This document shows positions 15,010 to 60,628 of a stretch of DNA of 63,526 nt, in pieces. The notes under the pieces were generated by a model. That model was not told the DNA's origin. It worked only from the letters and a program-made list of their open reading frames with translations, and did not search any database. The translations under genes were made by a program, and so were the position numbers. The DNA lies in the NCBI GenBank assembly GCA_043815885.1, contig JBDRIL010000005.1:1-63526 (forward strand), given 5' to 3'. This DNA is from an archaeon. Lineage in GTDB: Archaea > Iainarchaeota > Iainarchaeia > Iainarchaeales > 1-14-0-10-31-34. Each line of letters begins with the position of its first letter. The first letter of the stretch is position 1.

Positions 15010-15735
15010 CTATCTCTTTGACTTTTGTTTTTTCTTTCTTGCCTTCTTTCCTAAAGGCTTTTTTGGTTCAGTTCTTCTTGGATCATCAATCAAAAGCATT
15101 TTATCATACTTAATCATTTTCTGCTTCAGTTTTTCGTCATTAAAGTATTCTATTATGGATTTTGCTATTGCGCTTCTTGCGGCCACTGCCTGGCCCATAA
15201 AACCGCCCCCATTTGTACTGACACTTATATTCACTTCTTTCATTCTTTCCCCTGTCATTATCAGGGGCTCCCTGATAAATTCATTCAAGTACTTTGGCTG
15301 GATTAATTCAATACTTCTTTTATTTATCCTTATTTTCCCGTTTCCTGTTTTAATGGTCGCTCTTGCAACGGCTTCCTTCTTTTTTGCCTTAACATGAATT
15401 CCATACTTCTTACTCTTCTTTACCTTTTTTTTCTTCTTTTTTATTTTCCCTGTTTCCTCTGCCTCTTCTGTTTTCTCTTTCTCGTCTATTTTTGTTCCTT
15501 CGCTTTTCTCATCCGTCTTTTCTTCTTTTTCTTCAGTTTTTTCGTTTCCTGTTTCCTCTTTCTTTTCTTCAGTTTCTTTTTCCTTCTTTTCAATCTTTTT
15601 CTCTTTTATTCCTTTCTTTTCTTCAGTCTCTTTTTCTTCTTTTGCACCACTGTTTTCTCCCTGCTTCTCTTTTCTAAAAGCGGTGTTTTCCTCTTTTTTT
15701 ACTGTTTTCTTTTTTTCCTTCATTTTATTCACCAT
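15010..15735 (-). CDS. rps9: Ribosomal protein uS9 with ~110-aa K/E-rich N-terminal extension
   Basis: 241 aa. The core starts near [28 protein letters not shown] and ends in ...[12 protein letters not shown]. The extension carries ENTAFRK...SGAK and shared repeat modules. Confidence 0.85.
15437..15481 (-). repeat. Second shared module ([12 protein letters not shown]) in the uS9 extension, near-identical to the uS4 tail at 17831-17874
   Basis: tttttt-attttccctgtttccTctgCctcttctgttttctctttc here versus ttttt-attttccctgtttccCctgTctcttctgttttctctttc in uS4. Aligned by eye. Confidence 0.7.
15641..15692 (-). repeat. Degenerate copy of the in-frame palindromic-core repeat ([17 protein letters not shown]) in the uS9 extension
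   Basis: The plus strand reads tttgcaccactgttttctccctgcttctcttttctaaaagcggtgttttcc. It shares the AAAAGCGGTGTTTTC and GCaCCACTG(c)TTTT halves with the other copies. Confidence 0.7.
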
Positions 15736-16148
15736 TTTGCCCCAAGTGCTTTGCTTATGTCTCCCAAAAAAACGAAATTACTTTCTTCCCTCTTTCTTGC
15801 GATTTCAATTGAAGAAACATTTCCAGTTATTTCCTTTGGCTTTCCAATAAATACCTTTAATTTCTTTAAAGCATCTATTCCTCTTTTTCTCCTGTACGGA
15901 AGCATTCCTCTTACTGCTCTCTTTACTATTGCGTCCGGTTTCCTTGGATATTTAGGGCCAAAATGGGGGTTTCCCTTTCTTTGGAGATCCAGTCTTTTCT
16001 TGAATTTCTTTGAAACAAATTCCTTGCTTCCTATAATGACTGTTTTTTCTGCATTGATTACTTCAACCTTTTCTCCTTTCAATAATTTTTTAGCGATCTC
16101 TGAGGCCATTCTTCCCAGAATCAATTCCTCTGCATTCACTACAACCAT
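15729..16148 (-). CDS. rpl13: Ribosomal protein uL13
   Basis: 139 aa. VVNAEELILGRMASEIAKKLLKGEKVEVINAEK...RAVRGMLP. Confidence 0.9.
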   Translation of the reverse strand: MVVVNAEELILGRMASEIAKKLLKGEKVEVINAEKTVIIGSKEFVSKKFKKRLDLQRKGNPHFGPKYPRKPDAIVKRAVRGMLPYRRKRGIDALKKLKVFIGKPKEITGNVSSIEIARKREESNFVFLGDISKALGAKW

Positions 16149-16162
16149 TTTTTTCTCCTTCC

Positions 16163-16531
16163 CTACTTTAAAATAACTATTTCTTTTGCCTTTGTCTTCT
16201 TTTCAAGCAGTTCATTTAAGCTCATTGCATTCCCTTTTTTTTCTTTTATCTTCTTTAGAGCCTTTTCAGAGAATTCCAATGCAGCAACCTCTGCCTTTGA
16301 TTCAATACTGCCGGTACTTAATACTTTTCCTGGAACCAAAAGAATTTTTCCCTTGAATTTTTTACTCATTTTATCAATCTTCCACAGATTCACTGAAACC
16401 CTTGTCCTTCTTGATTTTTCTATTCTTTTCGCTACGTCTATCCACAACTTTTCCTTTCTCTTCTTTCCTTCTTTTTTCATCTTTGAAATAAATTTTTTTG
16501 TTTCCAGTTTTGTTGGGCCGGTTGCTTTCAT
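16163..16531 (-). CDS. rpl18e: Ribosomal protein eL18
   Basis: 122 aa. The L18e pattern is ...RTRVSVNLWKI...ILLVPGKVLSTG. Lies in the conserved position next to uL13. Confidence 0.8.
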   Translation of the reverse strand: MKATGPTKLETKKFISKMKKEGKKRKEKLWIDVAKRIEKSRRTRVSVNLWKIDKMSKKFKGKILLVPGKVLSTGSIESKAEVAALEFSEKALKKIKEKKGNAMSLNELLEKKTKAKEIVILK

Positions 16532-16582
16532 TGTTTTTCACCTTTTTTTTAGTGCCTTAATGCAAACCAATTGTATGTGGTT

Positions 16583-16666
16583 TGCGGGAGGGAGGATTTG
16601 AACCCCCGAAGGCACTAAGCCACAGGATCTTAAGTCCTGCCCCTTTGACCGCTTGGGTACCCCCGC
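16583..16666 (-). tRNA. tRNA-Leu (anticodon UAA), class II with long variable arm, no encoded CCA
   Basis: Minus-strand sequence: GCGGGGG-TA-CCCAAGCGGTCAAAGGG-G-CAGGA-CTTAAGA-TCCTG-TGGCTTAGTGCCTTC-GGGGG-TTCAAAT-CCTCC-CTCCCGC-A. The cloverleaf was folded by hand. The acceptor and T stems each have one G-U pair. Confidence 0.8.
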
Positions 16667-16676
16667 ATCAAAACAC

Positions 16677-17423
16677 TTAAACCTTATTTAATTCTTTCTT
16701 GAATTCAGCTGTTTTTTCCTCCAGTGTATTTACTGCCTGTTCAATTATTTCCTTTACTTCAAGTCCTCCAGTGGATTCTATCCTCATTATGAATGTATCT
16801 TTGCTGTAACTCAGTTCCAGGTTTCCTTCCTTGCATTCATCCTTGCATGCCCCGCATAAATCACATTTTGTTGGATCTTTCAATATGATTTTTTTTGCTT
16901 TTACTTCAAGTATATTCTTTGAGCATGCCTCAACGCATTTCTTGCACAGATTACATTCCTTCAGGTTATCTATTGAAGGCAATTCGTTGTAGCTGACTAA
17001 TGCCGGGCTCCACTTCGTGTGTTCTTTGCCTGTTCCAATTACTGCCTCCATTTCAAGCTTTATTTTTTGATTCTTTCCCAGCTTTACTATTGGAACCCTT
17101 TTGTCTACTACTTCTACCCCTACTGAACCCTTTAAGTCTCTTGAATAAATCATTCCTGGCCCTTCTTTTTCTAGGACAAGGTTTACTTTTTCTCCTTTTC
17201 CGTATTTCTTTGTCTCTGTTTTTATTGGTATCAGCCCCAGTCTATGGGCAAGCATTTCATCAAACATCACTGAACTGTTTTCATAGATGTTAACGTTCTC
17301 TATTGCGAGTACGGGGATACTGTTAGCCATTGTTCTTCTTAGCGCATTCATGAATGCAGTATTAACTCCTTTAATCAGAAATTTTGCGCTGTTTTCTTTT
17401 TTCTCTAATACTTTTATATCCAA
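16677..17423 (-). CDS. rpoD: RNA polymerase subunit Rpo3 (D) with 4Fe-4S-like Cys cluster domain
   Basis: 248 aa. ANSIPVLAIENVNIYENSSVMFDEMLAHRLGLIP plus CNLCKKCVEAC...CDLCGACKDEC. Confidence 0.85.
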   Translation of the reverse strand: MDIKVLEKKENSAKFLIKGVNTAFMNALRRTMANSIPVLAIENVNIYENSSVMFDEMLAHRLGLIPIKTETKKYGKGEKVNLVLEKEGPGMIYSRDLKGSVGVEVVDKRVPIVKLGKNQKIKLEMEAVIGTGKEHTKWSPALVSYNELPSIDNLKECNLCKKCVEACSKNILEVKAKKIILKDPTKCDLCGACKDECKEGNLELSYSKDTFIMRIESTGGLEVKEIIEQAVNTLEEKTAEFKKELNKV

Positions 17424-17435
17424 TTTATTTTCCCC

Positions 17436-17819
17436 CTATGTTTTTTTTCCTCTAAATCTCTTCTTCCTTCTACATCCATTGTGAGGGGCGGGTGTAACGT
17501 TTTCTATTGTCCTTATCCTGATGCCATTTCTTGTAAGTGAACGAATGGCTGCTTCTGCTCCCTGTCCTGGGCTCTTTGTTTTGATTCCTCCTTGAGCCCT
17601 TACCTTTACATCAACCTCTATTATTCCTTTATCTTTTGCCTTTCCAGCAATTATCTCTGCTGCCTTCATTGCAGCATAAGGGCTTCCTTCTTTGTGTTGT
17701 GCCTTTGTTACTGCTCCTCCACTGCTCGTTGCAATGGTTTCCTGCCCGGTTAAATCACTAAGCAAAATAATCGTGTTATTATGGGAAGCAAATATGTGTA
17801 TAATACATCTTTTATTCAT
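17436..17819 (-). CDS. rps11: Ribosomal protein uS11
   Basis: 127 aa. IIHIFASHNNTIILLSDLTG...PAPHNGCRRKKRFRG. Confidence 0.9.
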   Translation of the reverse strand: MNKRCIIHIFASHNNTIILLSDLTGQETIATSSGGAVTKAQHKEGSPYAAMKAAEIIAGKAKDKGIIEVDVKVRAQGGIKTKSPGQGAEAAIRSLTRNGIRIRTIENVTPAPHNGCRRKKRFRGKKT

Positions 17820-17825
17820 TTTTCA

Positions 17826-18503
17826 TCACTTTTTTATTTTCCCTGTTTCCCCTGTCTCTTCTGTTTTCTCTTTCTTTTCCTCTTCTTCATCCTCTTTTTC
17901 TTCTTTTGCATCACTGCTTTTTTCAGAAGCTTCAACTTTTGCGCCACTGCTTTTTCTAAAAGCGGTGTTTTCTTCTTTTTTTATTGTCTTCTTTTCTTTT
18001 AGTTCCAGTGGTTTTAATGGAATCTCTTTTCCGTAAAAGCCAATGTCTTTTTCCTCGTCAACCTTTACTATATATGACGGAACACTTACCTTTTTTCCAC
18101 TTATTGCAATGTGTCCGTGGGTAATGAATTGCCTTGCTTGTTTAACTGTATTAGCCAAACCTTTTCTCCATACAATTGTTTGAAGCCTTCTCTCTAATAA
18201 TTCTTCTGTCTTCAGACTCAGCACGTCATCAAGTGTTGCAGTCTTTTTAGCTAAACCTGTTCTCCTCAGACTTTCAAGCAATTCCTTTTCTTTCTTTGCT
18301 TTTTCTTCCATTGAGAGTGCAAGCAGCTTTCTTGCATTCTGTCTCTTTTTCCTGAGAAAGGTTTCACTTAACCATATCTCTTTCTTGTTCTTTAATCCAT
18401 AGGTTTCCGTTAACTTTTTTTCCGCTTCTATCCTGATTTTGTCCCATGGCTTTTTTGGTGTAAAAAACTTCTTTCCAATTTTTTTTGGGTCGCCCATTTT
18501 CAT
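17826..18503 (-). CDS. rps4: Ribosomal protein uS4 with ~60-aa K/E-rich C-terminal extension
   Basis: 225 aa. The S4 domain is RRLQTIVWRKGLANTVKQARQFITHGHIAISGKKV. The tail is [29 protein letters not shown]... Confidence 0.9.
   Translation of the reverse strand: MKMGDPKKIGKKFFTPKKPWDKIRIEAEKKLTETYGLKNKKEIWLSETFLRKKRQNARKLLALSMEEKAKKEKELLESLRRTGLAKKTATLDDVLSLKTEELLERRLQTIVWRKGLANTVKQARQFITHGHIAISGKKVSVPSYIVKVDEEKDIGFYGKEIPLKPLELKEKKTIKKEENTAFRKSSGAKVEASEKSSDAKEEKEDEEEEKKEKTEETGETGKIKK
17904..17973 (-). repeat. In-frame palindromic-core repeat, duplicated-core copy (ENTAFRKSSGAKVEASEKSSDAK) in the uS4 tail
   Basis: The plus strand reads ttttgcatcactgcttttttcagaagcttcaacttttgcgccactgctttttctaaaagcggtgttttc. 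Confidence 0.8.
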
Positions 18504-18511
18504 CTATCCTC

Positions 18512-19036
18512 TTACTTCTTTTTTTCTTCCTTTTTTGTCTCGATAGTTTTTTTGCCTGCACTCCTTGCGTCTTTCTTGATTACTCCTATGACTCCGCCTT
18601 TTCCTCTGTGTGTTGATTTAGTCTTTTGGCCTCTCACAGTCAAACCCCATCCAAGTCTTAGTCCTCGGTAGCTCTTTATTTTGCTCAGTCTTTGTAAGTC
18701 CTTTCTTTTGTTAAAGTCTAGTTCTCCCATTATGTAATGTTTATCCTTTCCGCTTTCAAATTCCTTTCTTGTATTCAAGCACCAGGAAGGGATTTCATGC
18801 TTTTCTGGGTTTAATACAATGTCCTCAAGCTTTTTATCCATTTCTTCCGGTATTTCTCCCAGCCTTGCGTTTTCATCTGTTTTTGTTAGATTGAAGAAGG
18901 TTTTAGCCATTATATTTGCTGTCCTGTGGTTTATTCCTTTTAAAGCCATTAATGCTCTCCCCACACCCAGTTTTCCATCTAAGTCCTTTCCTGCGATCCT
19001 AACTATAAGCCTTTTTTCCGTCTCCATTTCAATCAC
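18512..19036 (-). CDS. rps13: Ribosomal protein uS13
   Basis: 174 aa. RIAGKDLDGKLGVGRALMALKGINHRTA...YRGLRLGWGLTVRGQKTKS. Confidence 0.9.
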   Translation of the reverse strand: MIEMETEKRLIVRIAGKDLDGKLGVGRALMALKGINHRTANIMAKTFFNLTKTDENARLGEIPEEMDKKLEDIVLNPEKHEIPSWCLNTRKEFESGKDKHYIMGELDFNKRKDLQRLSKIKSYRGLRLGWGLTVRGQKTKSTHRGKGGVIGVIKKDARSAGKKTIETKKEEKKK

Positions 19037-19263
19037 TTTCCTTCCTTCTTCAATAAATCAATGATTTTTTCTTCCTTCATTCCTTTTTTTATCTCTATTT
19101 TTTTTTCTGTTGGAAACAAGTGAACTATATTGCATTTCCTTTTCTTCACTCTCTCCCCCATTACAGTAGCAAAATTTTTTTCTGTCCCTATGACTACACA
19201 TTTCTTTCCCGCTTCTCTTCCCTTCTTTTTAATGCATATCCTTCCTGTTTCTATTACATCCAT
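19033..19263 (-). CDS. rpl14e: Ribosomal protein eL14
   Basis: 76 aa. KOW-like GRICIKKKGREAGKKCVVI. Lies in the conserved position near cmk and eL34. Confidence 0.8.
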   Translation of the reverse strand: MDVIETGRICIKKKGREAGKKCVVIGTEKNFATVMGERVKKRKCNIVHLFPTEKKIEIKKGMKEEKIIDLLKKEGK

Positions 19264-19270
19264 TTATTTA

Positions 19271-19756
19271 TCACTTCTTTATTTTTTCAATGTACTTTTT
19301 TATTATTTTTACTGCGCTCTCTCTGTCAAGCTTGTCTACATTCAGCACCAAATCATAGTCCTTTAAATCAAGCAGATTCACTCCATAGTATTTCAGATAA
19401 TCGTCCCTGATTTCTTTATCCATTGCCTCAATCCTTTCTATTGCTTGATCCATTTCTACTCCTTCTTTTTCAGAGATCCTTCTTGCCCTCATCTTCTTTC
19501 CTGAAAGCAGGAAAACCTTTGCTTCTGCATTCTCAAGCATTAATCCACTCAATACGTGCTCTATTATTGTTTCTTCTTTTTCTCCTTCCCTCATTATTTC
19601 TTCCTTCCTTTTCTCGCTTCTTTCCTCTTCACTCTCTCCACTGATTCTTTTCTCTATTTCTTCTTCTCCAATATACTTCATTCCTGTTTCCAGAGCAAGA
19701 AGTTTACTTAATTCCCTTGTTTCTGTTCCCTTGTATCCTCCAATCGTTACAATCAC
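19271..19756 (-). CDS. Archaeal cytidylate kinase-like protein with degenerate P-loop and E-rich insertion
   Basis: 161 aa. The syntenic position (eL34-cmk-eL14) and the C-terminal pattern DLKDYDLVLNVDKL fit archaeal Cmk. The N-terminus reads MIVTIGGYKGTETRE instead of GxxGxGK[ST]. Confidence 0.55.
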   Translation of the reverse strand: MIVTIGGYKGTETRELSKLLALETGMKYIGEEEIEKRISGESEEERSEKRKEEIMREGEKEETIIEHVLSGLMLENAEAKVFLLSGKKMRARRISEKEGVEMDQAIERIEAMDKEIRDDYLKYYGVNLLDLKDYDLVLNVDKLDRESAVKIIKKYIEKIKK

Positions 19757-19761
19757 TTTAG

Positions 19762-20100
19762 CTACAACCCCTTTTCAATTACTTCCACGTAATTCCTTAA
19801 AATCAATTCCACTTCTGTTAACTTCTTTATCTTCTGGTTTACCTTCGCTGCCTCTTCCATTGCATTTGTCCTGCATTGATTGCATAAAACCCCTGCAAAT
19901 AAAGCTGTAGGACGCCTCTCTGTTTTGCTCAGTCTCCTCACTTCACTTGGCTTTTTTCCGTGAGGAACTCCATGCAATTGCTTCCTGCATACCGCACAAT
20001 GATGTTTTCCACTCTTCTTTTCTTCCCTTCTCTCAACTGTTTTTCCTCCAGGAGTTCTCCTGAACTTTTTTTTCTTGTATCTTTCGCTTCTCTTTACCAT
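19762..20100 (-). CDS. rpl34e: Ribosomal protein eL34
   Basis: 112 aa. RRTPGGKTV...CAVCRKQLHGVP...CNQCR zinc motif. Confidence 0.85.
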   Translation of the reverse strand: MVKRSERYKKKKFRRTPGGKTVERREEKKSGKHHCAVCRKQLHGVPHGKKPSEVRRLSKTERRPTALFAGVLCNQCRTNAMEEAAKVNQKIKKLTEVELILRNYVEVIEKGL

Positions 20101-20107
20101 TTAAATA

Positions 20108-20575
20108 TCACTTTTTCCTTATCTTTTCCATTAATTTCATTCCACCATTCAATGCAAGGCTAGTAACCAATGCAATCAAAATATACCATACAAGATAAGG
20201 CGCAAAAGTCCAGTTTATTACTGGAATCGTAAAGCTTCCAACAGGAAAAGTCGCGCCCTGATACTGCCTTACAACAAGAAAGAATATTGATCCAAATATT
20301 GCAAGTGAAACCACCATATACTTCATGCTTTCACTCATCATCTTGCTTGTTGCCTGCATCATTTCCTGCTGTACTTCATTTAATTCATTTTTTGATTTCT
20401 CGTCTGTCTGCTTCATTAATTCCTTCATCCTTGCCTGTTTTTCCTTCATTTCCTGCTGCAGTTGTTTCTGTCTTTCCCTCGGCATTAATTTTTTCTGGAG
20501 CACGATTGAAATTAATGTAATCATTATAGCGATAAGCGCTATATCCATTGCCGGATTAATCAATCCAAAACTCAT
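20108..20575 (-). CDS. DUF106 / EMC3-TMCO1-like membrane protein (archaeal Oxa1-superfamily insertase candidate)
   Basis: 155 aa. TM1, then a coiled-coil rich in Q/K/E/M (RQKQLQQEMKEKQARMKELMKQ), then 2 TMs. Lies in the conserved position downstream of secY. Confidence 0.65.
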   Translation of the reverse strand: MSFGLINPAMDIALIAIMITLISIVLQKKLMPRERQKQLQQEMKEKQARMKELMKQTDEKSKNELNEVQQEMMQATSKMMSESMKYMVVSLAIFGSIFFLVVRQYQGATFPVGSFTIPVINWTFAPYLVWYILIALVTSLALNGGMKLMEKIRKK

Positions 20576-20580
20576 TTCAT

Positions 20581-21993
20581 TCAGCCTCCAAACAATCTCC
20601 TGATTAATGGATGTGTTTCCATTAACTGCTGTTTCGCTAATTCTTCATACAGCCTATAAACAATTCCCACTGTCAGCAATATTCCTGTTCCGCTTCCAAG
20701 TGCTCCTGTTAAGTCAGCAAATCCTGCCAGGAATCCAACAAACGCTGAACCAAGAATCGCTATCGGGGGAATATACCTGTCAAGAATTCCCCTGATTATC
20801 CTTGGGTCTCTCCTGAATCCAGGGATATACATTCCTGAACGGCTCAATTGATTTGATACTGCCTCAGGGCCCTGTCCTCCCATTTCAACCCAAAACTTTC
20901 CAAAAACAATACACACTGCAATCAAAATAACCAAGTAAATCATTGCATGAATTATTTGTCCTCCCAATGGAAGTGCTGCAACATCATTCCAGTACGTGAG
21001 GAACTGCAGTTGAGTAAAGTAATCAATCATTTGCCCAAAGATAGATAAAGAAAAACCTCTAATCAACAGTGTTTCAATAAGCCTGTACGGAACACTTGTA
21101 AAGCTTGCCAGTGCCTTGAAAAGATAACTCACTATAGGAATCTGTGCAGTAAAGCTGGCCCACAATTTTATGTTTGCAAACAACGCTACAGCAAGAATCA
21201 CTGGAATGTTTGAAACATACAATAACTTAACCGGAAACCTTCCTCCAGTGCCTCTTCTTCCCATTGTAATGGGAATATTTACATGCATTCCTTCAGCATA
21301 AACAACCACAAAGAAAACTATCAGGGTTGCAATAATTGGAAGCAGTAAAATAAACTGTATTCCTGTTGCAAATGATTCAATGAATCTAGGAATTATTCCA
21401 ATCCATCCAATGGTTGGAGAAAAACCAAGCAGCCCCCAGAAAATGGTTTGTGCTACTCCTCCTGCAATAAACAATCCAATCCCTGAACCTATTCCATACT
21501 TTGAAACCAATTCATCCATGTAAAGCAATAAAATTGAACCCAATGCTACCTGCATTACAACCCAAACAAACATTCCAGGCATTGGAGTCAGCATTCCCGA
21601 TACAACATAAACTATTGCCTCAAAAACACACAGAATTATTGCAAACAATTTCTGCAATCCGGTAAACCTTGCCTTGTCCCTCGGATTAGTTAAATCAATG
21701 TCAATCAGTTTTCCTCCAACAAGCAATTGAAGTATTATTGAAGCCAGAACGATTGGACCTATCCCCACAGTAATAATTGTTCCAATATTGCTTGCAAGAA
21801 TTACCTGTATGTTTTCCAGTGCTCCTGCTGCACTTGCCTCTAAACCAATTAACTCTATCTGTCCCATTACAAAGAATAACAATAGAATTATCCCTGACCA
21901 AAACAACTTCTTTTTTAGCGGAGGCTGTACTTCTGGAACCTTTATTTCCGGAAGCTTAGTGTAAACTGGTTCCAGTAAATCAAGTATGCTCAT
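20581..21993 (-). CDS. secY: Preprotein translocase subunit SecY
   Basis: 470 aa with 10 predicted TMs. ...GIGPIVLASIILQLL...GSGIGLFIAGGV...LLYVSNIPVILA. Confidence 0.95.
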   Translation of the reverse strand: MSILDLLEPVYTKLPEIKVPEVQPPLKKKLFWSGIILLLFFVMGQIELIGLEASAAGALENIQVILASNIGTIITVGIGPIVLASIILQLLVGGKLIDIDLTNPRDKARFTGLQKLFAIILCVFEAIVYVVSGMLTPMPGMFVWVVMQVALGSILLLYMDELVSKYGIGSGIGLFIAGGVAQTIFWGLLGFSPTIGWIGIIPRFIESFATGIQFILLLPIIATLIVFFVVVYAEGMHVNIPITMGRRGTGGRFPVKLLYVSNIPVILAVALFANIKLWASFTAQIPIVSYLFKALASFTSVPYRLIETLLIRGFSLSIFGQMIDYFTQLQFLTYWNDVAALPLGGQIIHAMIYLVILIAVCIVFGKFWVEMGGQGPEAVSNQLSRSGMYIPGFRRDPRIIRGILDRYIPPIAILGSAFVGFLAGFADLTGALGSGTGILLTVGIVYRLYEELAKQQLMETHPLIRRLFGG

Positions 21994-24139: not shown

Positions 24140-24579
24140 TTCTTTGCACCTTTCGCCATTTCTTCAACGTATTTTTTTCCCTTGAAGTAATTTCCTTTAA
24201 TCATTTTATAGATTTTTCCATACATTCCTTTTCCCTTCACTAATTTCTTTTCCTTTAATTCCTTCAATGTTCTTCTCTGGCTTCTGACTTTTTTAATCCA
24301 TTCCATTTTTTTCTTGGCTCTTGCCTTCCCAGAGCCCTTCCTCTTTCCATAGCCTCTTTTTCTTCCCTTCCTCTTTTTTTCCTTTAACTTTCTTGCCCTG
24401 CTTCTGCTGTGTTCTGCTTTCTTTCTCTTCTTGATTATTCCTTCCTTGATTAAGTTCCTTACATCATCCTTTGTAATGCTTTCCTTTATTCTGGGGGTTT
24501 TGTCTGGATCCATCCATACCCTGCTTTCTCCTACCTTGAGAATTCCTGCTGCAATCTTTTTTATTTTATTCAACTGCAC
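24136..24579 (-). CDS. rpl19e: Ribosomal protein eL19
   Basis: 147 aa. KKIAAGILKVGESRVWMDPDK...RKGRKRGYGKRKG. Confidence 0.85.
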   Translation of the reverse strand: MQLNKIKKIAAGILKVGESRVWMDPDKTPRIKESITKDDVRNLIKEGIIKKRKKAEHSRSRARKLKEKKRKGRKRGYGKRKGSGKARAKKKMEWIKKVRSQRRTLKELKEKKLVKGKGMYGKIYKMIKGNYFKGKKYVEEMAKGAKK

Positions 24580-24594
24580 TTTTTTTTCCTCTCC

Positions 24595-25122
24595 TTAATT
24601 CAATACCCTTAACCCCATTTCTTTTGCTTTTCTGACCATTATTTTTTTATTCTTTTTTCCCACTTTTCCGCCAATCCTTACAACAAAGCCTTTCTTCACT
24701 TCCGCCAATTCCTTTACATTCTGTACCCTTACTTCATTCATTCCGCTTGGATGAACAAACCTTATCTTCTTTCTCGTCCTATACCCGCTTTTTGGAATGG
24801 CTCCGTCCTCTTTTTTTCTCTTTATATCTATCCCTCTTGGTTTTCTCCACTTATTCCATTTCTCTTTCTTCTTCCTTCTAAGCCACTTCTTTCCAAACCT
24901 TCCCCTAAAGGAAGGCTTCTTCTTCTCTTTAATCATTTCCTGAGCCAAAACAGCTTCCTTGTTTTTTTCAATTCTCTTTGCCTTTGGTTTCTTTTTCTCC
25001 TTCTTTTCTTCTTTTGCGCCACTGCTTTTTTCAATGGCTTCAGCTTTTGCGCCACTGCTTTTTTTAAAAGCGGTGTTTTCCTTTACAGTAGTTTTCTTCT
25101 CTGTTTTGTCCTTTTCCTTCAT
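24595..25122 (-). CDS. rpl32e: Ribosomal protein eL32 with ~60-aa N-terminal extension
   Basis: 175 aa. The core is WRKPRGIDIKRKK...PKSGYRTRKKIRFVHPSG. The extension is VKENTAFKKSSGAKAEAIEKSSGAKEEKK. Confidence 0.85.
   Translation of the reverse strand: MKEKDKTEKKTTVKENTAFKKSSGAKAEAIEKSSGAKEEKKEKKKPKAKRIEKNKEAVLAQEMIKEKKKPSFRGRFGKKWLRRKKKEKWNKWRKPRGIDIKRKKEDGAIPKSGYRTRKKIRFVHPSGMNEVRVQNVKELAEVKKGFVVRIGGKVGKKNKKIMVRKAKEMGLRVLN
25012..25080 (-). repeat. In-frame palindromic-core repeat, duplicated-core copy, in the eL32 N-terminal extension
   Basis: The plus strand reads cttttgcgccactgcttttttcaatggcttcagcttttgcgccactgctttttttaaaagcggtgttttc. Its reverse complement matches 63325-63392 with only ~3 mismatches, aligned by eye. 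Confidence 0.85.
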
Positions 25123-25658
25123 TCTTTCACCATTTTACTCACACGGTATATTCCGTCCTGAAATACTCTTCTGTCTTTTCCCTTTACTTTTGTTGAGGTC
25201 TCTATGTTTGCAGCTGTTTGTCCTACCTCTTCTTTTATTCTTCCTCTTACATAGACTTCCTTTCCTTTTACTTCAACAGTACTCTTTCCAACTATTGTTG
25301 CCTTCCTTGGATTCTTTTCTCCTGCAAAGTTATTTATTTCAAGAAATCCTTCTTTCACTGCCAAATTTATTGGAAAGTGTGAATAAACAACCATTAACTT
25401 GTACTCGAATCCATTCTTTAATCCTGTAATTAAATTCATTACATGACTCCGGACCGCATTCATTACTGATTTAGTTTTTCGGGAATATTTCTTCGTATTT
25501 AGAATCAGGTTTCCGTCTTTTTTTTCAAACCTAATTTCCCTTGCCTTGAATTCCCTCTCTGTTTCTTCCTTTCCATTGCTGAACTTGACTCTGCTTCCTT
25601 CTACACTGAATTCAATTCCCTCAGGGATTTCAATAATGATGCTTTCTTCTTTCTTCAT
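25119..25658 (-). CDS. rpl6: Ribosomal protein uL6
   Basis: The track ORF (to 25847) overlaps uS8. The ATG at 25658 (MKKEESIIIEIPEGIEFSVEG...) gives a 179-aa uL6 of normal length, 9 nt after the uS8 stop. Confidence 0.85.
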   Translation of the reverse strand: MKKEESIIIEIPEGIEFSVEGSRVKFSNGKEETEREFKAREIRFEKKDGNLILNTKKYSRKTKSVMNAVRSHVMNLITGLKNGFEYKLMVVYSHFPINLAVKEGFLEINNFAGEKNPRKATIVGKSTVEVKGKEVYVRGRIKEEVGQTAANIETSTKVKGKDRRVFQDGIYRVSKMVKE

Positions 25659-25666
25659 TTTTTCAC

Positions 25667-26059
25667 CTAATAAACGTAAGCCAACAACCTTCCGCCCAAA
25701 CCATCCTTCTTTGCTTCCCTGTGGCTCTTGATTCCTTTTGGGGTTGAAACAATCAATATCCCTATGTCTCTTGAGGGGAGATACCTCTTCTCGTATTTCT
25801 CGAAGTCCTTTTTCTTTACTGCATGCCTTGGCTTGATTGAATTGCATTCATTTATTTTTCCATCCAGCTTTACCTTGAATATTCCATTCCTTCCATCATT
25901 GATGTGCTCGTGTGAAACAATGTAGCCGTTTTCCTGCATTACCCTAAGTATTTCCCCCATAAGCTTTGGGGCTGGCTTAAAAGTACATTCCTTCTTTGAA
26001 GCCATTTCATGGTTTTTTATGTTTGCCAGCGCATCTGAAACCGGATCAACTAAACTCAT
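25667..26059 (-). CDS. rps8: Ribosomal protein uS8
   Basis: 130 aa. [14 protein letters not shown]...[10 protein letters not shown]...GGRLLAYVY. Confidence 0.9.
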
Positions 26060-26072
26060 TCATAACACTTCC

Positions 26073-26207
26073 TTAATTGTATTTCTTGAACCCGATCTTT
26101 GGGGCAATTTCCTTAAAGCATCTCCTGCAAATATTCATTCTGTATTTTCTGATTAATCCGCTGCTTGCCTTACAGACAATGCACACATCCTTTCTTCTGT
26201 CTCTCAT
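26073..26207 (-). CDS. rps14: Ribosomal protein uS14 (short zinc-binding type)
   Basis: Not in the track (44 aa). Hand translation gives MRDRRKDVCIVCKASSGLIRKYRMNICRRCFKEIAPKIGFKKYN*, with CxxC...CxxC. The start overlaps the uL5 stop as ATGA. Confidence 0.8.
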   Translation of the reverse strand: MRDRRKDVCIVCKASSGLIRKYRMNICRRCFKEIAPKIGFKKYN

Positions 26208-26719
26208 GATACTTCTACTCCAAATTCTTTCTTTATAAACTCTATTGCTTCTTCCTTTGTCACCCTATGCTTTTTGCCGACCTTTTTTTGTCTTTCCTTT
26301 CTCCTCTTCAATCTGTATCCTTTTCTCTCCAAACTCACTAATACATCAAAACCCCTTATCCCCAGCTTTGCGTCATACTTTACTCCAGGCAAATCAATGT
26401 ATTCCTTTATCCCAAAGCCAAAGTTTCCATTGTTATCAAAATTCTTATGGCTCAGACTATTGTCTTTTGCACTTAAAGCTCTCTTCAATACCTCTACAGC
26501 CTTATCTTTTCTCAGAGTAACCTTTGCTCCAATAGTTAGACCTTCCCTTATACCCCAGGTGGGGGCCCTCACTTTACATTTTGTTTGGATTGTCTTCCTT
26601 TCAGTGATCTTTTCAAGTATCAGTTGAGCGTTATTTAATTCCTCTCCAGTCTGTCCCACACCCATGTTTAGAACAAGCTTCTCTATTCTTATCTTTCTCA
26701 TGGGGTTTTCGTCATTCAT
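26204..26719 (-). CDS. rpl5: Ribosomal protein uL5
   Basis: 171 aa. NPMRKIRIEKLVLNMGVG...FGFGIKEYIDLPG. Confidence 0.9.
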   Translation of the reverse strand: MNDENPMRKIRIEKLVLNMGVGQTGEELNNAQLILEKITERKTIQTKCKVRAPTWGIREGLTIGAKVTLRKDKAVEVLKRALSAKDNSLSHKNFDNNGNFGFGIKEYIDLPGVKYDAKLGIRGFDVLVSLERKGYRLKRRKERQKKVGKKHRVTKEEAIEFIKKEFGVEVS

Positions 26720-27447
26720 TCTTTCTCTTCACCTATCCCTATTTCCGATTTTTTTTCTCCCATAACAAAGACATTCCTTGCAGTTGTCTTGAATTTCTTT
26801 TTCTTCAATTCAAGCTCCACTAATTTTTCTCGCGTGATTGTTCCTTCACTTATTTCAGTTATTTTGGCAATACTTCCTACATGGGTTCCCCCAGAAATAA
26901 ATGCAAGATTTCCTTTCTTCAAAGAAATTGCTGAGAGAATCTTTCCTGAAGGCAATTCAATCTTTATTGTGTCTCCAACCTTGATCTCAATTTTTTCTTC
27001 CAGGAAACTTCTTCCATCATTGGTACTTAACTGCTGCCTGCCTTTCTTTATTTTTCTTTTCCCAGTCACCTTGCACAATTTTGTTAGGGGCCCTTTCTTT
27101 TTGAGTTCATCCACCTTCAGCCTTCCCTTCTCGTCAAATAAAAGCACAAAATGCTTTTTCATTTCTTTAATACTAATTAAATCAAACATTCCTACAGGAA
27201 ACCTTATTTCCTTTCTTACCCTGCCATCAACCATGACCTTTCCATCCCTTATTATTCTTTTGGCTTCCCTTAAATTGCTTGCATAACCCAATAAATCTCT
27301 TAAAACAAATCCTAATGGGATGGAGTATCCTTTGCTGTGCGGCCCAGGCAAACATTTTATTGTAAATGTTTTTTCTTTCCTGTTTAATCTTCTGGTCTTA
27401 CTTGAAGCAATCCTTTTCTCGCTCTTCTTTCCTCCTTTCTTGCCCAT
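26716..27447 (-). CDS. rps4e: Ribosomal protein eS4
   Basis: 243 aa. LPGPHSKGYSIPLGFVLRDLLGYA...REAKRIIRDGKVMVDGRVRK. Confidence 0.9.
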   Translation of the reverse strand: MGKKGGKKSEKRIASSKTRRLNRKEKTFTIKCLPGPHSKGYSIPLGFVLRDLLGYASNLREAKRIIRDGKVMVDGRVRKEIRFPVGMFDLISIKEMKKHFVLLFDEKGRLKVDELKKKGPLTKLCKVTGKRKIKKGRQQLSTNDGRSFLEEKIEIKVGDTIKIELPSGKILSAISLKKGNLAFISGGTHVGSIAKITEISEGTITREKLVELELKKKKFKTTARNVFVMGEKKSEIGIGEEKE

Positions 27448-27989
27448 TAACTTTCCTCCTTCTTTTCTTTCCCCGTTTTTTCTTCCGTCTTATTTTCTGG
27501 TTTCTTTTTTTCTTCAGCCTTTTTCTCTTCATTTTCTTCTTTTGCGCCACTGCTTTTTTCAAAAGCGGTGTTTTCTCTTTTTTCTTCACTCTTCTCTTTG
27601 CTTTTTCCTTTCCCCTCTGCTTCTTCTTTCGCTTTCAGCTTGATTTTTTTTCTCTTAAACCTTTTATCGTCCTTCAACTCCAAATCAGTTATCATGAGAT
27701 TTGATGCCTTGAATGGAACAAGTATCTCTGTTCCGTCAGCCTTTTTTCGGACCATTTTTTCAATGAAAATAACTCCCTTCTTATAATCGACCTTTGTCAC
27801 TTTCCCGCTCTTTTTCTTTTTCTTTCCCCTCATTATCTTTACAGTGTCACCGCTCCTTACAGCCAGACTTCTCTGATTCAATTCTTTCTTCAAACCCTTG
27901 CTTAAGTGAGCTTTAAGCAAACCTCTTTTTTCATGCAGTGAACTTTCATACAGCTTTTTTCTCTGCTTTGATGGTTTTTTGCTCTTCAT
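27447..27989 (-). CDS. rpl24: Ribosomal protein uL24 with ~60-aa K/E-rich C-terminal extension
   Basis: 180 aa. The KOW domain is VRSGDTVKIMRGKKKKKSGKVTKVD. The tail is ...RENTAFEKSSGAKEENEEKKAEEKKKPENKTEEK. Confidence 0.85.
   Translation of the reverse strand: MKSKKPSKQRKKLYESSLHEKRGLLKAHLSKGLKKELNQRSLAVRSGDTVKIMRGKKKKKSGKVTKVDYKKGVIFIEKMVRKKADGTEILVPFKASNLMITDLELKDDKRFKRKKIKLKAKEEAEGKGKSKEKSEEKRENTAFEKSSGAKEENEEKKAEEKKKPENKTEEKTGKEKKEES
27539..27576 (-). repeat. In-frame palindromic-core repeat (single core) in the uL24 tail
   Basis: The plus strand reads cttttgcgccactgcttttttcaaaagcggtgttttctc. Confidence 0.8.
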
Positions 27990-28001
27990 TTTAATTTTCT
28001 C

Positions 28002-28400
28002 CTAAACAATAACAGAAGAAATTCCCGCTATCTTTGGCCATCTCTCTCCCACTTCCTTTGCAATAACCCCTTTTATTTCCGAACCCTTTGGAACTCCTTT
28101 GTCATCCACCAGCACTATTGCATTATCTTCAAACTTTACTCTTCTCCCATCAGCTCTTCTGTACTCCTTCTTAACTCTAACGATTATTCCTCTTTCAACC
28201 TTCTTTCTTATCTCTGGTTTTCCTTTCTTTACCACTACATTCACCATGTCTGCAATTCCTGCTTTTGGATGCATTCTCTTTTTTCCCTTGAATCCAAACA
28301 CACTTATTATCTCCACTATCTTTGCTCCGCTGTTGTCTGCACAGACACACTGTGATTTCTGGCTTAAAGATTTTACTGGGAAAGCGCTCAATGCCTTCAT
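28002..28400 (-). CDS. rpl14: Ribosomal protein uL14
   Basis: 132 aa. CADNSGAKIVEIISV...AIVLVDDKGVPKGSEIKGVIAKE. Confidence 0.9.
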   Translation of the reverse strand: MKALSAFPVKSLSQKSQCVCADNSGAKIVEIISVFGFKGKKRMHPKAGIADMVNVVVKKGKPEIRKKVERGIIVRVKKEYRRADGRRVKFEDNAIVLVDDKGVPKGSEIKGVIAKEVGERWPKIAGISSVIV

Positions 28401-28687
28401 TTTCTTTCAACCTCTGTCACTACAAAACTCTTTGTTTTGCTTATCTTTCTGGTTTCTCCTATTGTAACCATATCGTTTTCTTTTGCATTCATGCAAGGAG
28501 GGTTATGTGCCTTAATCCTTGACTTTACCTTCTTGTATCTCTCGTACTTGGGGACCTTTCTGATGATTTTTCTTTCCACTGTAACCATCGTGTTTCCTTT
28601 TGCATTAATTACCCTGGCCTTGAATACATTGCCCCTCACTTTTAGGTTTCCGTGAACAGGGCAGTTCTTGTCCTTGCATTCAACCAT
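28397..28687 (-). CDS. rps17: Ribosomal protein uS17
   Basis: 96 aa. CPVHGNLKVRGNVFKARVI...YKKVKSRIKAHNPPC...GETRKISKTKSFVV. Confidence 0.85.
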   Translation of the reverse strand: MVECKDKNCPVHGNLKVRGNVFKARVINAKGNTMVTVERKIIRKVPKYERYKKVKSRIKAHNPPCMNAKENDMVTIGETRKISKTKSFVVTEVERK

Positions 28688-28985
28688 TTTTTTTCCTCCT
28701 GAAAAACAACTTTATTCTTTCTTCTGGTTTTCCAACCAGATTTCTTCCCTCAACACTTATTTTTTTTCCTCCAACAAGAAACTCTAAGTCCGCTTCCTTT
28801 TTCGGAAGAATTTTTTCCTCTCCTTCCTTCTCTTCAATCACCAATGTGTTTTTTGTTTCCTTTATCACTTTTCCTCTCATCCCTTCCTTGTTCTTGTCAC
28901 ATGATTTTATTGCCTTTACCTTTAATCCATTCAATTCATGCGCAATAATGTTCTCCTTATTTATCAAGTATTTTTTATACATCAA
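28680..28985 (-). CDS. rnp1: RNase P protein component 1 (Rpp29/Pop4)
   Basis: 101 aa. HELNGLKVKAI...GKVIKETKNTLVIE...GKPEERIK. Lies in the conserved position between SUI1 and uS17. Confidence 0.75.
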   Translation of the reverse strand: MMYKKYLINKENIIAHELNGLKVKAIKSCDKNKEGMRGKVIKETKNTLVIEEKEGEEKILPKKEADLEFLVGGKKISVEGRNLVGKPEERIKLFFRRKKNG

Positions 28986-29277
28986 TTAATTCCTCTTTGT
29001 ATCCCTGCATTAAGAGTATTTCCTTAATGTTTTTCTTGTGGTTTCCTTGGAGTTCTATTTCGTTTCCTTTTACCGTGCCTCCACAGGCAAGCTTTTTCTT
29101 CAATATCTTTTCTAATTCCTTTGCTCTTTCATGGCTCTCCAATCCGCTGATGCTTGTCACCAGTTTTCCAAATCTTCTTCTTCCCACTCTCACCTTTATC
29201 TGTTCTGCTTCCTTTGCCATTTCTCCGCAACTACACAGCTCTTTTGGAAGCCCGCAAACCGGACACACCTCATTCAT
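28975..29277 (-). CDS. sui1: Translation initiation factor aIF1 (SUI1)
   Basis: 100 aa. N-terminal CPVCG...CSC, then IKVRVGRRRFGKLVTSISGL...KLACGGTVKGNEIELQGNH. Confidence 0.85.
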   Translation of the reverse strand: MNEVCPVCGLPKELCSCGEMAKEAEQIKVRVGRRRFGKLVTSISGLESHERAKELEKILKKKLACGGTVKGNEIELQGNHKKNIKEILLMQGYKEELIDV

Positions 29278-29504
29278 TTTTCTTCTTTCACCTCTCCTTT
29301 AGTTTTTTCTTTTTCATTAATAATGGTTAATATTCTTGCAATCGTTTTCCTCATTTTCTTTATCTTTCCAGGATTCTCTGATCTAGTGCCTGAAGAGATC
29401 AATGCCTTTTCTTTGGCTAGATCTGCCTTTATCCCAATAATCTTTTCACTTAACTCTTCCGCAGCCATCCCCCTCATGTCTTTCACGTTCAACTTTACGG
29501 CCAT
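29274..29504 (-). CDS. rpl29: Ribosomal protein uL29
   Basis: 76 aa. MRGMAAEELSEKIIGIKADLAKEKA...IKKMRKTIARILT. Confidence 0.8.
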   Translation of the reverse strand: MAVKLNVKDMRGMAAEELSEKIIGIKADLAKEKALISSGTRSENPGKIKKMRKTIARILTIINEKEKTKGEVKEEK

Positions 29505-29510
29505 TATTCA

Positions 29511-30485
29511 TCACTTTTTTTCTTTTCCTTTCTCCTTAGCCTTTTCTGCTATCTCTTTCTTTTCCTTTTTTTCTTCCGTCTTATTTTCTGGTTTCTCTTT
29601 TTCCCTTTTTTCTTCAGCCTTTTCTTCTTTTTTGCTACTGCTTTTCTCAGGGACAGTTTTTTCTTCTTTTGCGTCACCGCTTTTTCCAACAGCGGTGTCT
29701 TCCTTTTTTTCGTTTGTCTTTTCTTTTTTCTTTTCCTTCTCATTTTTTTCTTTCTTATCCTCAGTTTTTTCTTCTTTAGCTTCTTCCTTTTTCTCTTTCT
29801 TTTCTTCTTTTCCTTCTGCTTTTTCCTCGATTTCTTCTTTTCCTTTCTCCTGCGTTTCTTCTGCTTCTTCCACTTTTTCTTCCTTTTTCAGGAATTCCTC
29901 TATTTTAAACTTATCCGGAAAGAGTGTTCCTGGCTTAACTATCTTTACTTTTATTCCTATGATTCCAAACTTCGCGTTTGCAGGGGAAATCCCGTAATCA
30001 ACCAATCTTGCTTGATCGCCCACCTTCTTCATATATCCTTCAGCTATCCTTTGCTTTCTTTTTCTGCTTCCCTTTCCTCCCAGTGCTCCTGAAAGCAATA
30101 GTTCTGTTCCTACTGCTCCTGCCCTCATGATGTCTTTGATTGCTCTGTATGCAACACTCCTCCAGCTGAATCCTCTCTCAATCAATTTTGATATCTTGTC
30201 AGCCATTGCTTGTGCGTCAAGTTCAGGCACTTCTATTTCCTTTATCTCTATTTGAGGGTTATCTATCTTGAATCTTTCTTCAATTTCTTTTGTAAGGCTC
30301 CTGATGTTTGTTCCTCCCTTTCCTATCGCTAAACCAGGCCTGGTTACATTAACTATTATTCTTGTCACAAGTGGGGTCTTTACTGTTTCAAGTTTTGTAA
30401 ATCCTGCCTTCCCTAACTCTTTCCTCAAATACGTCTCTAGTTCTGCTTTCTTTATTCCCTGAGTGATAAAGTTTCTTTCAATCAA
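29511..30485 (-). CDS. rps3: Ribosomal protein uS3 with ~128-aa K/E-rich C-terminal extension
   Basis: 324 aa. The KH domain is VNVTRPGLAIGKGGTNIRSL, with LSGALGGKGSRKRK. The extension starts at ~aa 197 (nt 29511-29897) and includes EDTAVGKSGDAKEEK and KPENKTEEK. Confidence 0.9.
   Translation of the reverse strand: MIERNFITQGIKKAELETYLRKELGKAGFTKLETVKTPLVTRIIVNVTRPGLAIGKGGTNIRSLTKEIEERFKIDNPQIEIKEIEVPELDAQAMADKISKLIERGFSWRSVAYRAIKDIMRAGAVGTELLLSGALGGKGSRKRKQRIAEGYMKKVGDQARLVDYGISPANAKFGIIGIKVKIVKPGTLFPDKFKIEEFLKKEEKVEEAEETQEKGKEEIEEKAEGKEEKKEKKEEAKEEKTEDKKEKNEKEKKKEKTNEKKEDTAVGKSGDAKEEKTVPEKSSSKKEEKAEEKREKEKPENKTEEKKEKKEIAEKAKEKGKEKK
29667..29700 (-). repeat. Diverged in-frame palindromic-core repeat (EDTAVGKSGDAK) in the uS3 tail
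   Basis: The plus strand reads cttttgcgtcaccgctttttccaacagcggtgtcttcc. The inverted repeat CACCGCT/AGCGGTG is perfect. Confidence 0.7.
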
Positions 30486-41996: not shown

Positions 41997-42041
41997 ATTA
42001 ATTCATCCTATAATTAATTCAATGAATAAAATTAAATCTTT

Positions 42042-60136: not shown

Positions 60137-60607
<471 letters not shown>

Positions 60608-60628
60608 TTATATAAAGGAGGAAATAAA

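Follow-up and report, generated by a model that had tools for sequence, protein, structure and literature searches.

The 63,526-nt stretch of contig JBDRIL010000005.1 (assembly GCA_043815885.1) analysed here, hereafter the window, carries a short palindromic repeat that is translated in frame within the terminal extensions of five ribosomal proteins. The intact core of the repeat is 33 nt long, and its conservation resides in the DNA and not in the peptide that it encodes. Identical copies are found untranslated in spacers and beside tRNA genes, their distribution among related genomes is patchy, the number of units varies between strains, and stretches of tail that adjoin the repeat are shared between otherwise unrelated genes. 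We think it probable that the element is a short non-autonomous palindromic repeat, of the size of bacterial repetitive extragenic palindromic (REP) sequences and similar in behaviour to Rickettsia palindromic elements (RPEs), which spreads as DNA.

The window is an archaeal contig of 37.5% G+C with its ribosomal-protein cluster on the minus strand, and its host is a DPANN archaeon. As the best relatives of its uS4, found in metagenome-assembled genomes (MAGs) of 'Candidatus Diapherotrites', are only 69-70% identical over the core domain, this organism appears to have no close relative in the databases.

Copies of the repeat in the window

According to Pfam, the host genes of the five ribosomal-protein copies encode uS9, uS4, eL32, uL24 and uS3, all on the minus strand, and every one of these copies lies outside the folded domains. 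In uS4 (17826..18503), the tail of which is rich in Lys and Glu (K/E) and starts around residue 170, a full core copy is found at 17935..17972 (loop AGA; profile score 48.8, E 9.5e-14), followed 33 nt downstream by a tandem unit that comprises the right arm only (17902..17930, encoding EKSSDAKEE). Similarly, the N-terminal extension of eL32 (24595..25122; Pfam domain at residues 76-175) harbours a full copy at 25043..25080 (ENTAFKKSSGAK; loop AAA) and a right-arm-only unit at 25010..25034 (EKSSGAKEE). The third full copy, ENTAFEKSSGAK with a GAA loop, is at 27538..27575 in the approximately 65-residue C-terminal tail of uL24 (27447..27989; domain at residues 3-111), a tail that is missing from the orthologue in the related locus L033 described below. 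The two remaining ribosomal-protein copies have diverged. The one in the K/E tail of about 135 residues that follows the KH and S3_C domains (residues 15-182) of uS3 (29511..30485) is EDTAVGKSGDAK, at 29665..29701, with four substitutions (profile E 4e-11); one of them converts the C.A mismatch of the stem to a C-G pair, and another interrupts the T-run. In the N-extension of uS9, of about 115 residues (15010..15735; S9 domain at residues 118-241), a degenerate copy at 15638..15689 has its right arm split by an insertion of about 16 nt (E 1.2e-6).

A sixth copy, consisting of the core and one tandem unit (GDTAFGKSSGAKAEAIEKSSGAKEEE, 63324..63392), is located on the plus strand in an open reading frame (ORF) that starts at 63085 with MKHALVLISLLFFSLNAFA and continues past the end of the window at 63526. 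Its product is not a ribosomal protein and has a signal peptide and one transmembrane helix. Scanning the window with the 37-nt consensus GAAAACACCGCTTTT-NNN-AAAAGCAGTGGCGCAAAAG, with at most three mismatches, yielded four matches (17936-17972, 25044-25080 and 27539-27575 on the minus strand and 63322-63358 on the plus strand), versus 0.00 expected from 100 shuffles. An nhmmer profile built from 13 copies added the uS3 and uS9 copies and three right-arm-only units, the third of which belongs to the sixth copy (63368-63392), and revealed no further copies in the 63.5 kb of the window. In the frames of their hosts, the six copies read (E/D/G)(N/D)TA(F/V)xK..GAK.

A preliminary description of this DNA had reported the five ribosomal-protein copies, all of which we recovered on the minus strand, which is the sense strand of their genes. 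Its statement that they share one orientation and one reading frame relative to the host gene holds for every copy. The list was nevertheless incomplete, as it missed the non-ribosomal copy at 63.3 kb, and the loop, given as 3-5 nt, is 3 nt long (RRA) in the intact copies and in that of uS3.

Conservation at the DNA level

The intact 33-nt core can be written (AA)CACCGCTTTT-RRA-AAAAGCAGTGGCGCAAAA and encodes xNTAFxKSSGAK in the frame of its hosts. The form AACACCGCTTTT-RRA-AAAAGCAGTGGCGCAAAA is intact in uS4, eL32 and uL24 and diverged in uS3 and uS9. Our comparison covers 17 independent copies of the 33-nt core, ten of them translated and seven untranslated, drawn from public contigs as well as the window. 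Variation is nearly confined to unpaired bases, namely the first two bases of the core and the first two of the loop, which are always A or G, while 14 of the 17 copies show no change in the 10-bp stem or in the GGCGCAAAA that trails it.

The ten independent coding copies are distributed over at least eight different proteins, and the host ORF is open in every case. Eight of the ten use the same nine codons for T-A-F and K-S-S-G-A-K. Given the peptide and the codon usage of the window, the probability of these nine codons is 1.25e-5 per copy, a low value because ACC and GGC are rare in the window (13% of Thr and 8% of Gly codons, respectively). Moreover, the differences between coding copies are mostly non-synonymous (N/D/G and R/K/E/G), with only two synonymous changes, which is the reverse of the pattern left by selection on a peptide.

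The inverted repeat amounts to the hairpin itself, with a stem of 10 bp including one mismatch. Folded as sense-strand RNA, the hairpin retains a C.A mismatch and has a predicted energy of -7.7 kcal/mol. In antisense RNA a G.U pair takes the place of this mismatch, and the energy is -11.1 kcal/mol (z = -4.3 for the uL24 copy); the G-U pair emphasised in the preliminary description thus stands as this energy difference only, and not otherwise. The antisense strand reads TTTTGCGCC-ACTGCTTTT-YYT-AAAAGCGGTG-TTTTC..., that is, a hairpin of ten pairs, four of them G-C, followed by the T-run TTTTC(T/C)(T/C)... When the cluster was scanned for terminator-like sites on the antisense strand, the intact copies of uS4, eL32 and uL24 ranked first, third and fourth. 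The sense strand of the coding copies contains T4 at most.

In flanks of complex sequence the ends of the unit are sharp. They were seen in the gene of an asparagine synthase (AsnB)-like protein (...ATCCAAGG directly followed by CACCGC) and at a tRNA fragment (...GATTCG followed by AACACCGC..., and ...GCGCAAAAG followed by AGGAATG). Searches of the copies with Rfam 15 and ARAGORN matched genuine tRNAs only, with nothing at any copy. We also considered a tRNA-like fold, but reading the element as an anticodon arm or a split-tRNA leader is incompatible with tRNA numbering.

Further copies in the same metagenome

The hairpin pattern was scanned once over the metagenome contigs of JGI and ENA, and a back-translated pattern once over 185,579 species-representative genomes; as these were exact-pattern scans, one per collection, diverged copies elsewhere are missed by them. 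Palindromes in Vibrio, gut and soil contigs that fit the hairpin pattern were discarded as chance matches, since they do not have GGCGCAAAA. A 40-residue peptide with the motif, compared with a database of 5.8 billion proteins, gave no match, probably as a result of composition filtering. Contigs and loci are referred to below by L numbers.

The metagenome Ga0180007 is presumably the window's own sample. Two of its contigs repeat window copies with their flanks: L022 carries the eL32 copy (100% identity over 1512 nt) and L025 that of uL24 (99.6% over 2274 nt). The copies are therefore not assembly chimeras, a possibility that the preliminary description had raised. The strains represented by the window and L025 differ over these 2274 nt by one mismatch and a single indel, of 9 nt (REK), which falls within the K/E tail of uL24 (27503-27511).

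The contigs of Ga0180007 provide six further copies at four loci, five of them of the window type by a 33-nt search. These loci, L017, L021, L024 and L026, were placed in the window's genome on the basis of sample, G+C content (36-38.5%) and type of unit. In L024, the core and three 33-nt units form part of the C-terminal tail of a 108-residue membrane protein, beside a gene that likely codes for PCNA. In L026, two copies lie in the K/E tail of the protein encoded immediately upstream of the aP1 stalk gene; from gene order, this host is probably uL10/P0. The copy of L021 is untranslated and sits between convergent genes, 27 and 22 nt from their stop codons.

The most unusual site is that of L017, where a core, two units and a second, decayed core are found within the N-terminal domain of the AsnB-like protein (L017:1794-3245). 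In an alignment with eight homologues, the element occupies a gap in the glutaminase domain. Like its two nearest homologues among those compared (P0121-P0123), the host protein does not have the catalytic Cys1 (MSS or MGS instead of MCS), and its glutaminase domain is probably inactive and decaying. An ENA assembly encodes a protein, 98% identical to this host, that is shorter by exactly one 11-residue (33-nt) unit.

Copies in other archaea

The repeat extends beyond the genome of the window. In L020 (Ga0315289), an untranslated copy separates convergent housekeeping genes, 27 and 15 nt from their stops. The other copies come from contigs L001 and L003 of the MAG CAZMCX01 and from the matching metagenome contigs L012 and L016. 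On L012, L016 and L003 the core is located about 40 nt downstream of intact genes for tRNA-Arg(TCT) and tRNA-Gln(TTG), and the T-rich strand of the core has the sense of the tRNA. In CAZMCX01 and the matching contigs, orphan 3' fragments of the same two tRNAs lie downstream of the intact ones, and the core directly adjoins these fragments, precisely at the T-loop, the GCGGTG end of the core being joined to TTCGAATCTCCGTCGGAC or to TTCGGGTCCCACCGAGGTCGTAC (L003:1-240, L012:860-1111, L016:2417-2595 and L001:5850-5906). The tandem units next to the tRNAs are 93 nt long and contain two other perfect hairpins, and the contigs end at these arrays. Such an arrangement could result from an integrase-type (att-site) duplication or from microhomology slippage at GG(A/T)GTT. 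A CRISPR array was rejected, given that the tandem units, of 33 or 93 nt, have identical intervening sequence and no unique spacers.

Overall, the untranslated copies lie 15-41 nt from the ends of genes or tRNAs. The core of CAZMCX01 is identical to the uL24 copy at 33 of 33 positions, whereas the RtcB protein encoded on L003 is only 47% identical to that of the window. The 33-nt core has thus apparently spread between distantly related archaea.

Syntenic loci in other Diapherotrites genera

Four syntenic ribosomal-protein loci from other genera, L030, L031, L032 and L033, were compared with the window. Palindromes of the form stem-T4-7-loop-A4-7-stem are abundant in L030 (18, for a shuffle mean of 0.75), L031 (10, for 0.25) and the window (8, for 1.55), and number 3 in L033 (0.2) and 1 in L032 (0.6). 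In L032 and L033, eL32, uS4 and uS9 have K/E-rich tails without such an element, and uL24 of L033 is tailless. The eL32 core is most similar between the window and L033 on the one hand, and between L030/L031 and L032 on the other, and carriers and non-carriers are therefore interleaved.

L030 has a subfamily of its own, GAAAAACC(T/A)GCTTTTGAGAAAAGCC(A/G)GGTTGCCAAAACCAAAGA, present in the N-extension of eL32 and the C-tail of uS4 (44 nt, with two differences between the copies), and three more palindromes in its uL24 tail. In L031, a related copy in the uS4 tail has its left arm in another frame (KPLFSEKSRLPK), and eL32 contains a decayed copy. Among the 29 inspected uS4 homologues, only two besides that of the window have a related tail motif. 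In general, nearly all Diapherotrites uS4 proteins (P0002-P0120) have K/E-rich C-tails of 40-130 residues that cannot be aligned with one another, and many show a short KK(E/A)FEE(A/V)xP motif right after the core domain; the palindrome of the window and L031 proteins is found at about that position.

In the spacers of L030 and L031, palindromes of the same kind, followed by (T)TGCC/ACC and AAAA, come directly after stop codons. Orthologous spacer palindromes of these two loci show paired changes, such as C-G versus A-T in the EMC3-eL34 spacer; these compensatory differences are individual examples, as bulges and variable T-run lengths shift the columns of the stem. Palindromes of T-runs and A-runs also fill the long introns of tRNA-Leu(TAA), a gene located between those for rpoD and eL18. 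All four relatives have an intron after position 37/38, of about 132 nt in L030 (11823-12040), 96 nt in L031 (8531-8712), 48 nt in L032 (11609-11742) and 43 nt in L033 (11836-11964), and it is the first two that contain the palindromes. The tRNA-Leu(TAA) gene of the window (16582-16667) has no intron. ARAGORN misses all four intron-bearing genes.

A purine-rich stretch upstream of uS9 in L031 (9616-9811) is annotated as a 197-nt spacer, while in the window and L030 the ORF includes its counterpart. As purine-only sequence cannot hold stop codons, the boundary between spacer and N-extension is ambiguous in this lineage.

The preliminary description had attributed the copies to a DNA-level process and not to convergent low complexity. 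This interpretation is supported by the copies found outside the window, be they intergenic and untranslated (L020, L021), adjacent to tRNAs (L001, L003, L012, L016) or in unrelated proteins. It is equally supported by the patchy state of orthologous tails, which are without the palindrome in L032 and L033 and carry another subfamily in L030 and L031, by codon identity beyond what the peptide entails, and by the recovery of copies in independent assemblies. Two caveats apply: the element is not restricted to ribosomal proteins, and the unit exchanged between tails often exceeds the palindrome.

Reading frame and shared tail modules

When the core is translated in all six frames, open frames besides that of the hosts are found in sense +1 (KTPLLEKAVAQK) and in two antisense frames; sense +2 is open for a GGA loop only. 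Four or five of the six frames are thus open, and all ten coding copies use the same one. That no copy has the opposite orientation is explicable, as this orientation would bring runs of T5-6 and Phe/Leu-rich codons into the mRNA. The use of one sense frame would be better explained if the coding copies descended from one another together with their flanks.

Similarities beyond the palindrome are consistent with such a descent. The eL32 copy and that at 63 kb resemble each other past the core, over 71-81 nt at 93-97% identity (71 nt at 97%). The end of uS4 (17829..17875, minus strand; EKTEETGETGKIKK) and part of the uS9 N-extension (15436..15482, minus strand) share a 47-nt module at 96% identity, and self-BLAST aligned the left part of the uS4 and uS9 segments over 44 nt at 93%. 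Likewise, a module encoding KKPENKTEEK, 97% identical over 37 nt, is common to the tails of uL24 (27476..27512, minus strand) and uS3 (29567..29603, minus strand), in both of which it lies downstream of the palindrome. For both pairs (tail of uS4 and extension of uS9; tails of uL24 and uS3), the shared modules are colinear with the palindrome. The element is present in all five long ribosomal K/E segments (at least 38 residues) and in the acidic tail of the 63-kb ORF, and seven other K/E-rich segments of the window (25-44 residues) do not have it.

Proposed origin and spread

The T-rich strand of the repeat, a 10-bp hairpin bracketed by T-runs, has the shape of a transcription terminator. In the scenario that we favour, the element would propagate as DNA, both inside a genome and, apparently, from one archaeon to another that is only distantly related. 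The sites that tolerate it would be spacers and introns, as well as disordered tails and domains in decay. Persistence in a coding region would depend on three conditions: that the A-rich strand is the sense strand, which avoids a long T-run and a Phe/Leu-rich peptide; that the frame remains open; and that the copy sits in a loop, in a decayed domain or in a K/E-rich tail that is disordered. The xNTAFxKSSGAK peptide would be a by-product of translation. Once in K/E tails, copies may be passed from one tail to another along with the adjoining modules; if this occurred by recombination or template switching, the homology of the flanking GAA/AAG sequence, with its 3-nt periodicity, would hold the frame. 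Slippage of the right-arm unit of 33 nt, or 11 codons, would account for growth. Contributions may come from selection against the other frames and the opposite orientation, from shuffling driven by homology and from an enzyme that mobilises the repeat in trans, and the route of spread may be either transposition or homology-driven copying. The untranslated copies adjoin gene and tRNA ends, which makes it plausible that in spacers they act as terminators and help to form 3' ends; U-tracts are described as the main archaeal termination signal (PMC8716108).

Several observations weigh against this scenario. The known loci amount to about a dozen, and no strain-level pair of filled and empty sites was found for any ribosomal-protein copy. 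No target-site duplication is visible in the flanks of the copies examined, and no transposase, integrase or HUH-type gene is present in the window or next to any of these copies; Pfam scans of the window ORFs and of the neighbours of untranslated copies returned housekeeping genes only. Nor did we find a viral or plasmid vector, with no exact match to three patterns in IMG/VR and no BLAST match in phage or plasmid collections. That a single sense frame is used when two are open is unexplained by tolerance alone. Lastly, the occurrence of the L030/L031 subfamily in the same host tails could reflect a function or the concerted evolution of old insertions rather than repeated invasion.

Alternative explanations

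The hairpin might instead act in cis as a nucleic-acid signal under selection, with each ribosomal-protein gene keeping it for its activity. It could serve as an antisense terminator or insulator across the highly expressed cluster, or, in the sense direction, tune the downstream genes of the operon as a processing site, an attenuator or a weak terminator internal to it. Internal terminators do tune the ribosomal-protein and RNA-polymerase operons of Methanococcus maripaludis (PMC10450193). The combination of hairpin and T-run on the antisense strand, and the rank of the intact ribosomal-protein-tail copies in the terminator scan, agree with this proposal, although the antisense strand of K/E-coding DNA is rich in T-runs anyway and the sense strand offers only T4. 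Conserved stems with variable loops would also be expected of a signal, as would the palindromes of L030 and L031, which are found in the same tails with a different peptide or left-arm frame (KPAFEKSRVAK, KPLFSEKSRLPK and QPFLEKKVATQ). However, the unit occurs where there is no operon logic, such as the membrane-protein tail, the AsnB-like enzyme and the arrays of tRNA fragments; the sister genomes L032 and L033 have the operon and the tails without the element; and right-arm-only units, which are incapable of forming the hairpin, have been amplified too. We therefore regard this explanation as unlikely.

We find it very unlikely that the peptide is what is selected, with TAFxKSSGAK acting as a short linear motif by which flexible tails dock a common partner, and with its recent spread or homogenisation by gene conversion accounting for the identical codons. 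The P-stalk proteins, whose conserved C-terminal peptide docks partners, offer an analogy. In this hypothesis, one would understand the strict frame and orientation of the ten coding copies despite the other open frames, the presence of the motif on all five long ribosomal K/E segments and on the acidic tail of the 63-kb ORF, and the tandem amplification of the motif-bearing unit. Yet seven of the 17 copies are untranslated and identical in sequence, relatives keep the palindrome while the peptide changes, and sister genomes do not have the motif. The scarcity of synonymous relative to non-synonymous changes is likewise not what a short linear motif would leave.

A third possibility is that the tails arose by the loss of stop codons or the gain of upstream starts over purine-rich, stop-free spacers that already bore the palindrome, with no insertion into coding DNA. 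The absence of a uL24-eS4 spacer from all four syntenic loci does not fit with such an exonisation, nor does the position of the AsnB-like copy, internal to its gene. Independent events should in addition have used both open sense frames, when one is seen, and the colinear tail modules at 93-97% identity imply copying between genes. Thus, this origin appears highly doubtful, even though the A-rich flanks of intergenic copies would read as K/E tails (in L020, NKKKKNTAFRKSSGAKQKEKKEIKK), such palindromes crowd the spacers of L030 and L031, and the K/E-like stretch upstream of uS9 in L031 is annotated as a spacer.

Artefact or chance, in the form of assembly collapse, chimeras, oligonucleotide contamination or convergent low complexity, can practically be dismissed: the tails are of low complexity, repeats can mislead assemblers, and nine bases of the core (AAGCAGTGG) coincide with a common cDNA-synthesis oligonucleotide, but three independent assemblies give copies with unique flanks, the GC-rich core is not of low complexity, the host ORF is open at every copy, and shuffled sequence yields none of the four consensus matches.

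Comparison with known repeats

A short repeat that spreads as DNA has parallels in several known families. REPs and REPINs are imperfect bacterial palindromes of 20-40 nt, mobilised without target-site duplication by REP-associated tyrosine transposases (RAYTs) of the Y1/HUH type. REPs are almost wholly extragenic, occur in hundreds of copies, have a conserved GTAG start and are tied to a RAYT gene; we know of no RAYT reported from Archaea. Our element resembles them as an imperfect palindrome of 33 nt without target-site duplication, in having untranslated copies just downstream of genes or between convergent genes, in its tandem or clustered copies and in the genome-specific sequence variants of L030 and L031. 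It differs from them in that over half of the copies known so far are translated, the window and the retrieved loci contain no RAYT-like gene, and the window-type sequence is common to distantly related organisms. The pneumococcal SPRITE repeats are also dispersed and are themselves terminator-like hairpins with a T-run, a structure found here on the antisense strand; however, SPRITEs are bacterial and intergenic, whereas the element described here is read by the ribosome on the opposite strand.

The preliminary description had named RPEs as the closest precedent, which is apt for behaviour and not for size. RPEs (Ogata et al. 2000), as summarised in PMC10969869, are bacterial elements of about 150 bp that fall into ten families. 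Like them, as they are presented there, the repeat is a palindrome inserted in frame in many unrelated genes as well as in non-coding DNA (PMC10969869), here in ten coding copies whose ORFs remain open. It adds a conserved peptide without destroying the host protein, and is found in a lineage with small genomes and a dependence on hosts. In contrast with the 100-150 bp and 30-50 residues of RPEs, its core has 33 nt (11-12 codons), and tandem units extend it to no more than about 70-135 nt. It is also archaeal and terminator-shaped, resides mainly in disordered K/E-rich tails, expands in tandem by 33 nt and travels with adjoining tail modules. With a DPANN archaeal host, sequence homology to RPEs is not expected.

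Miniature inverted-repeat transposable elements, or MITEs, are known from Sulfolobus, Halobacterium and DPANN archaea; DPANN genomes are among the archaeal genomes densest in them, and about 89% of archaeal MITEs are intergenic (PMC10969869, PMC11602168). They too are non-autonomous repeats of archaeal genomes, but they measure 50-800 bp and have terminal inverted repeats and target-site duplications (PMC11602168), whereas the present unit is 33 nt long with no such duplication and does not qualify as a MITE. As the element is below the size handled by standard MITE finders, similar repeats may be widely overlooked. In the literature that we searched, RPE-like elements are linked to Archaea only in a general review of MITEs and in one unrelated paper on RNA hairpins of giant viruses.

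For selfish palindromes within coding genes there is essentially a single textbook case, the Rickettsia RPEs. Here, a much smaller, terminator-shaped repeat appears to do likewise in the ribosomal proteins of a DPANN archaeon. It would offer a concrete DNA mechanism for the building and exchange of the long, fast-evolving K/E-rich extensions of DPANN ribosomal proteins, and it suggests that one and the same sequence, depending on the strand that is read, can be a protein tail or a spacer or terminator element. The contrast between 33/33 identity of the core and 47% identity of RtcB points to an unrecognised route by which very short DNA might pass between archaeal lineages.

It is tempting to go further and imagine a hairpin module of 33 nt that moves horizontally from one DPANN archaeon to distant relatives by means of an undescribed archaeal hairpin-recognising enzyme and builds ribosomal-protein extensions, TAFxKSSGAK being retained as a docking site, although we consider this quite unlikely as a whole. 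If true, the module would seed and homogenise K/E-rich tails on uS3, uS4, uS9, uL24, eL32 and probably the stalk base, TAFxKSSGAK would be kept on the surface of the ribosome and on the tails of membrane proteins, and a functional short linear motif would in this way be inscribed by mobile DNA on the translation machinery.

Other features of the loci

A few observations concern other genes of the window. The longest ORF for uL6 (25119-25847) begins 180 nt within the 3' end of uS8, and the true start is probably the internal codon of MKKEES... At 40566-42461 on the minus strand, the gene of the tRNA ligase RtcB adjoins that of its activator archease. A riboflavin-related cluster at 59474-61033 consists of a CTP-dependent riboflavin kinase gene followed by two tandem genes of the lumazine-synthase family, one with a weak match (52.9 bits) and the other with a strong one (128 bits). 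Further on, 61228-61593 and 61805-62167 encode paralogous 120-residue proteins with several transmembrane segments, with a 67-residue transmembrane protein between them. Outside the window, L003:6448-6504 (minus strand) holds a candidate C/D-box small RNA with clear C, D', C' and D boxes; its scores against several archaeal sR families (best E 3e-4) fall short of the gathering threshold.

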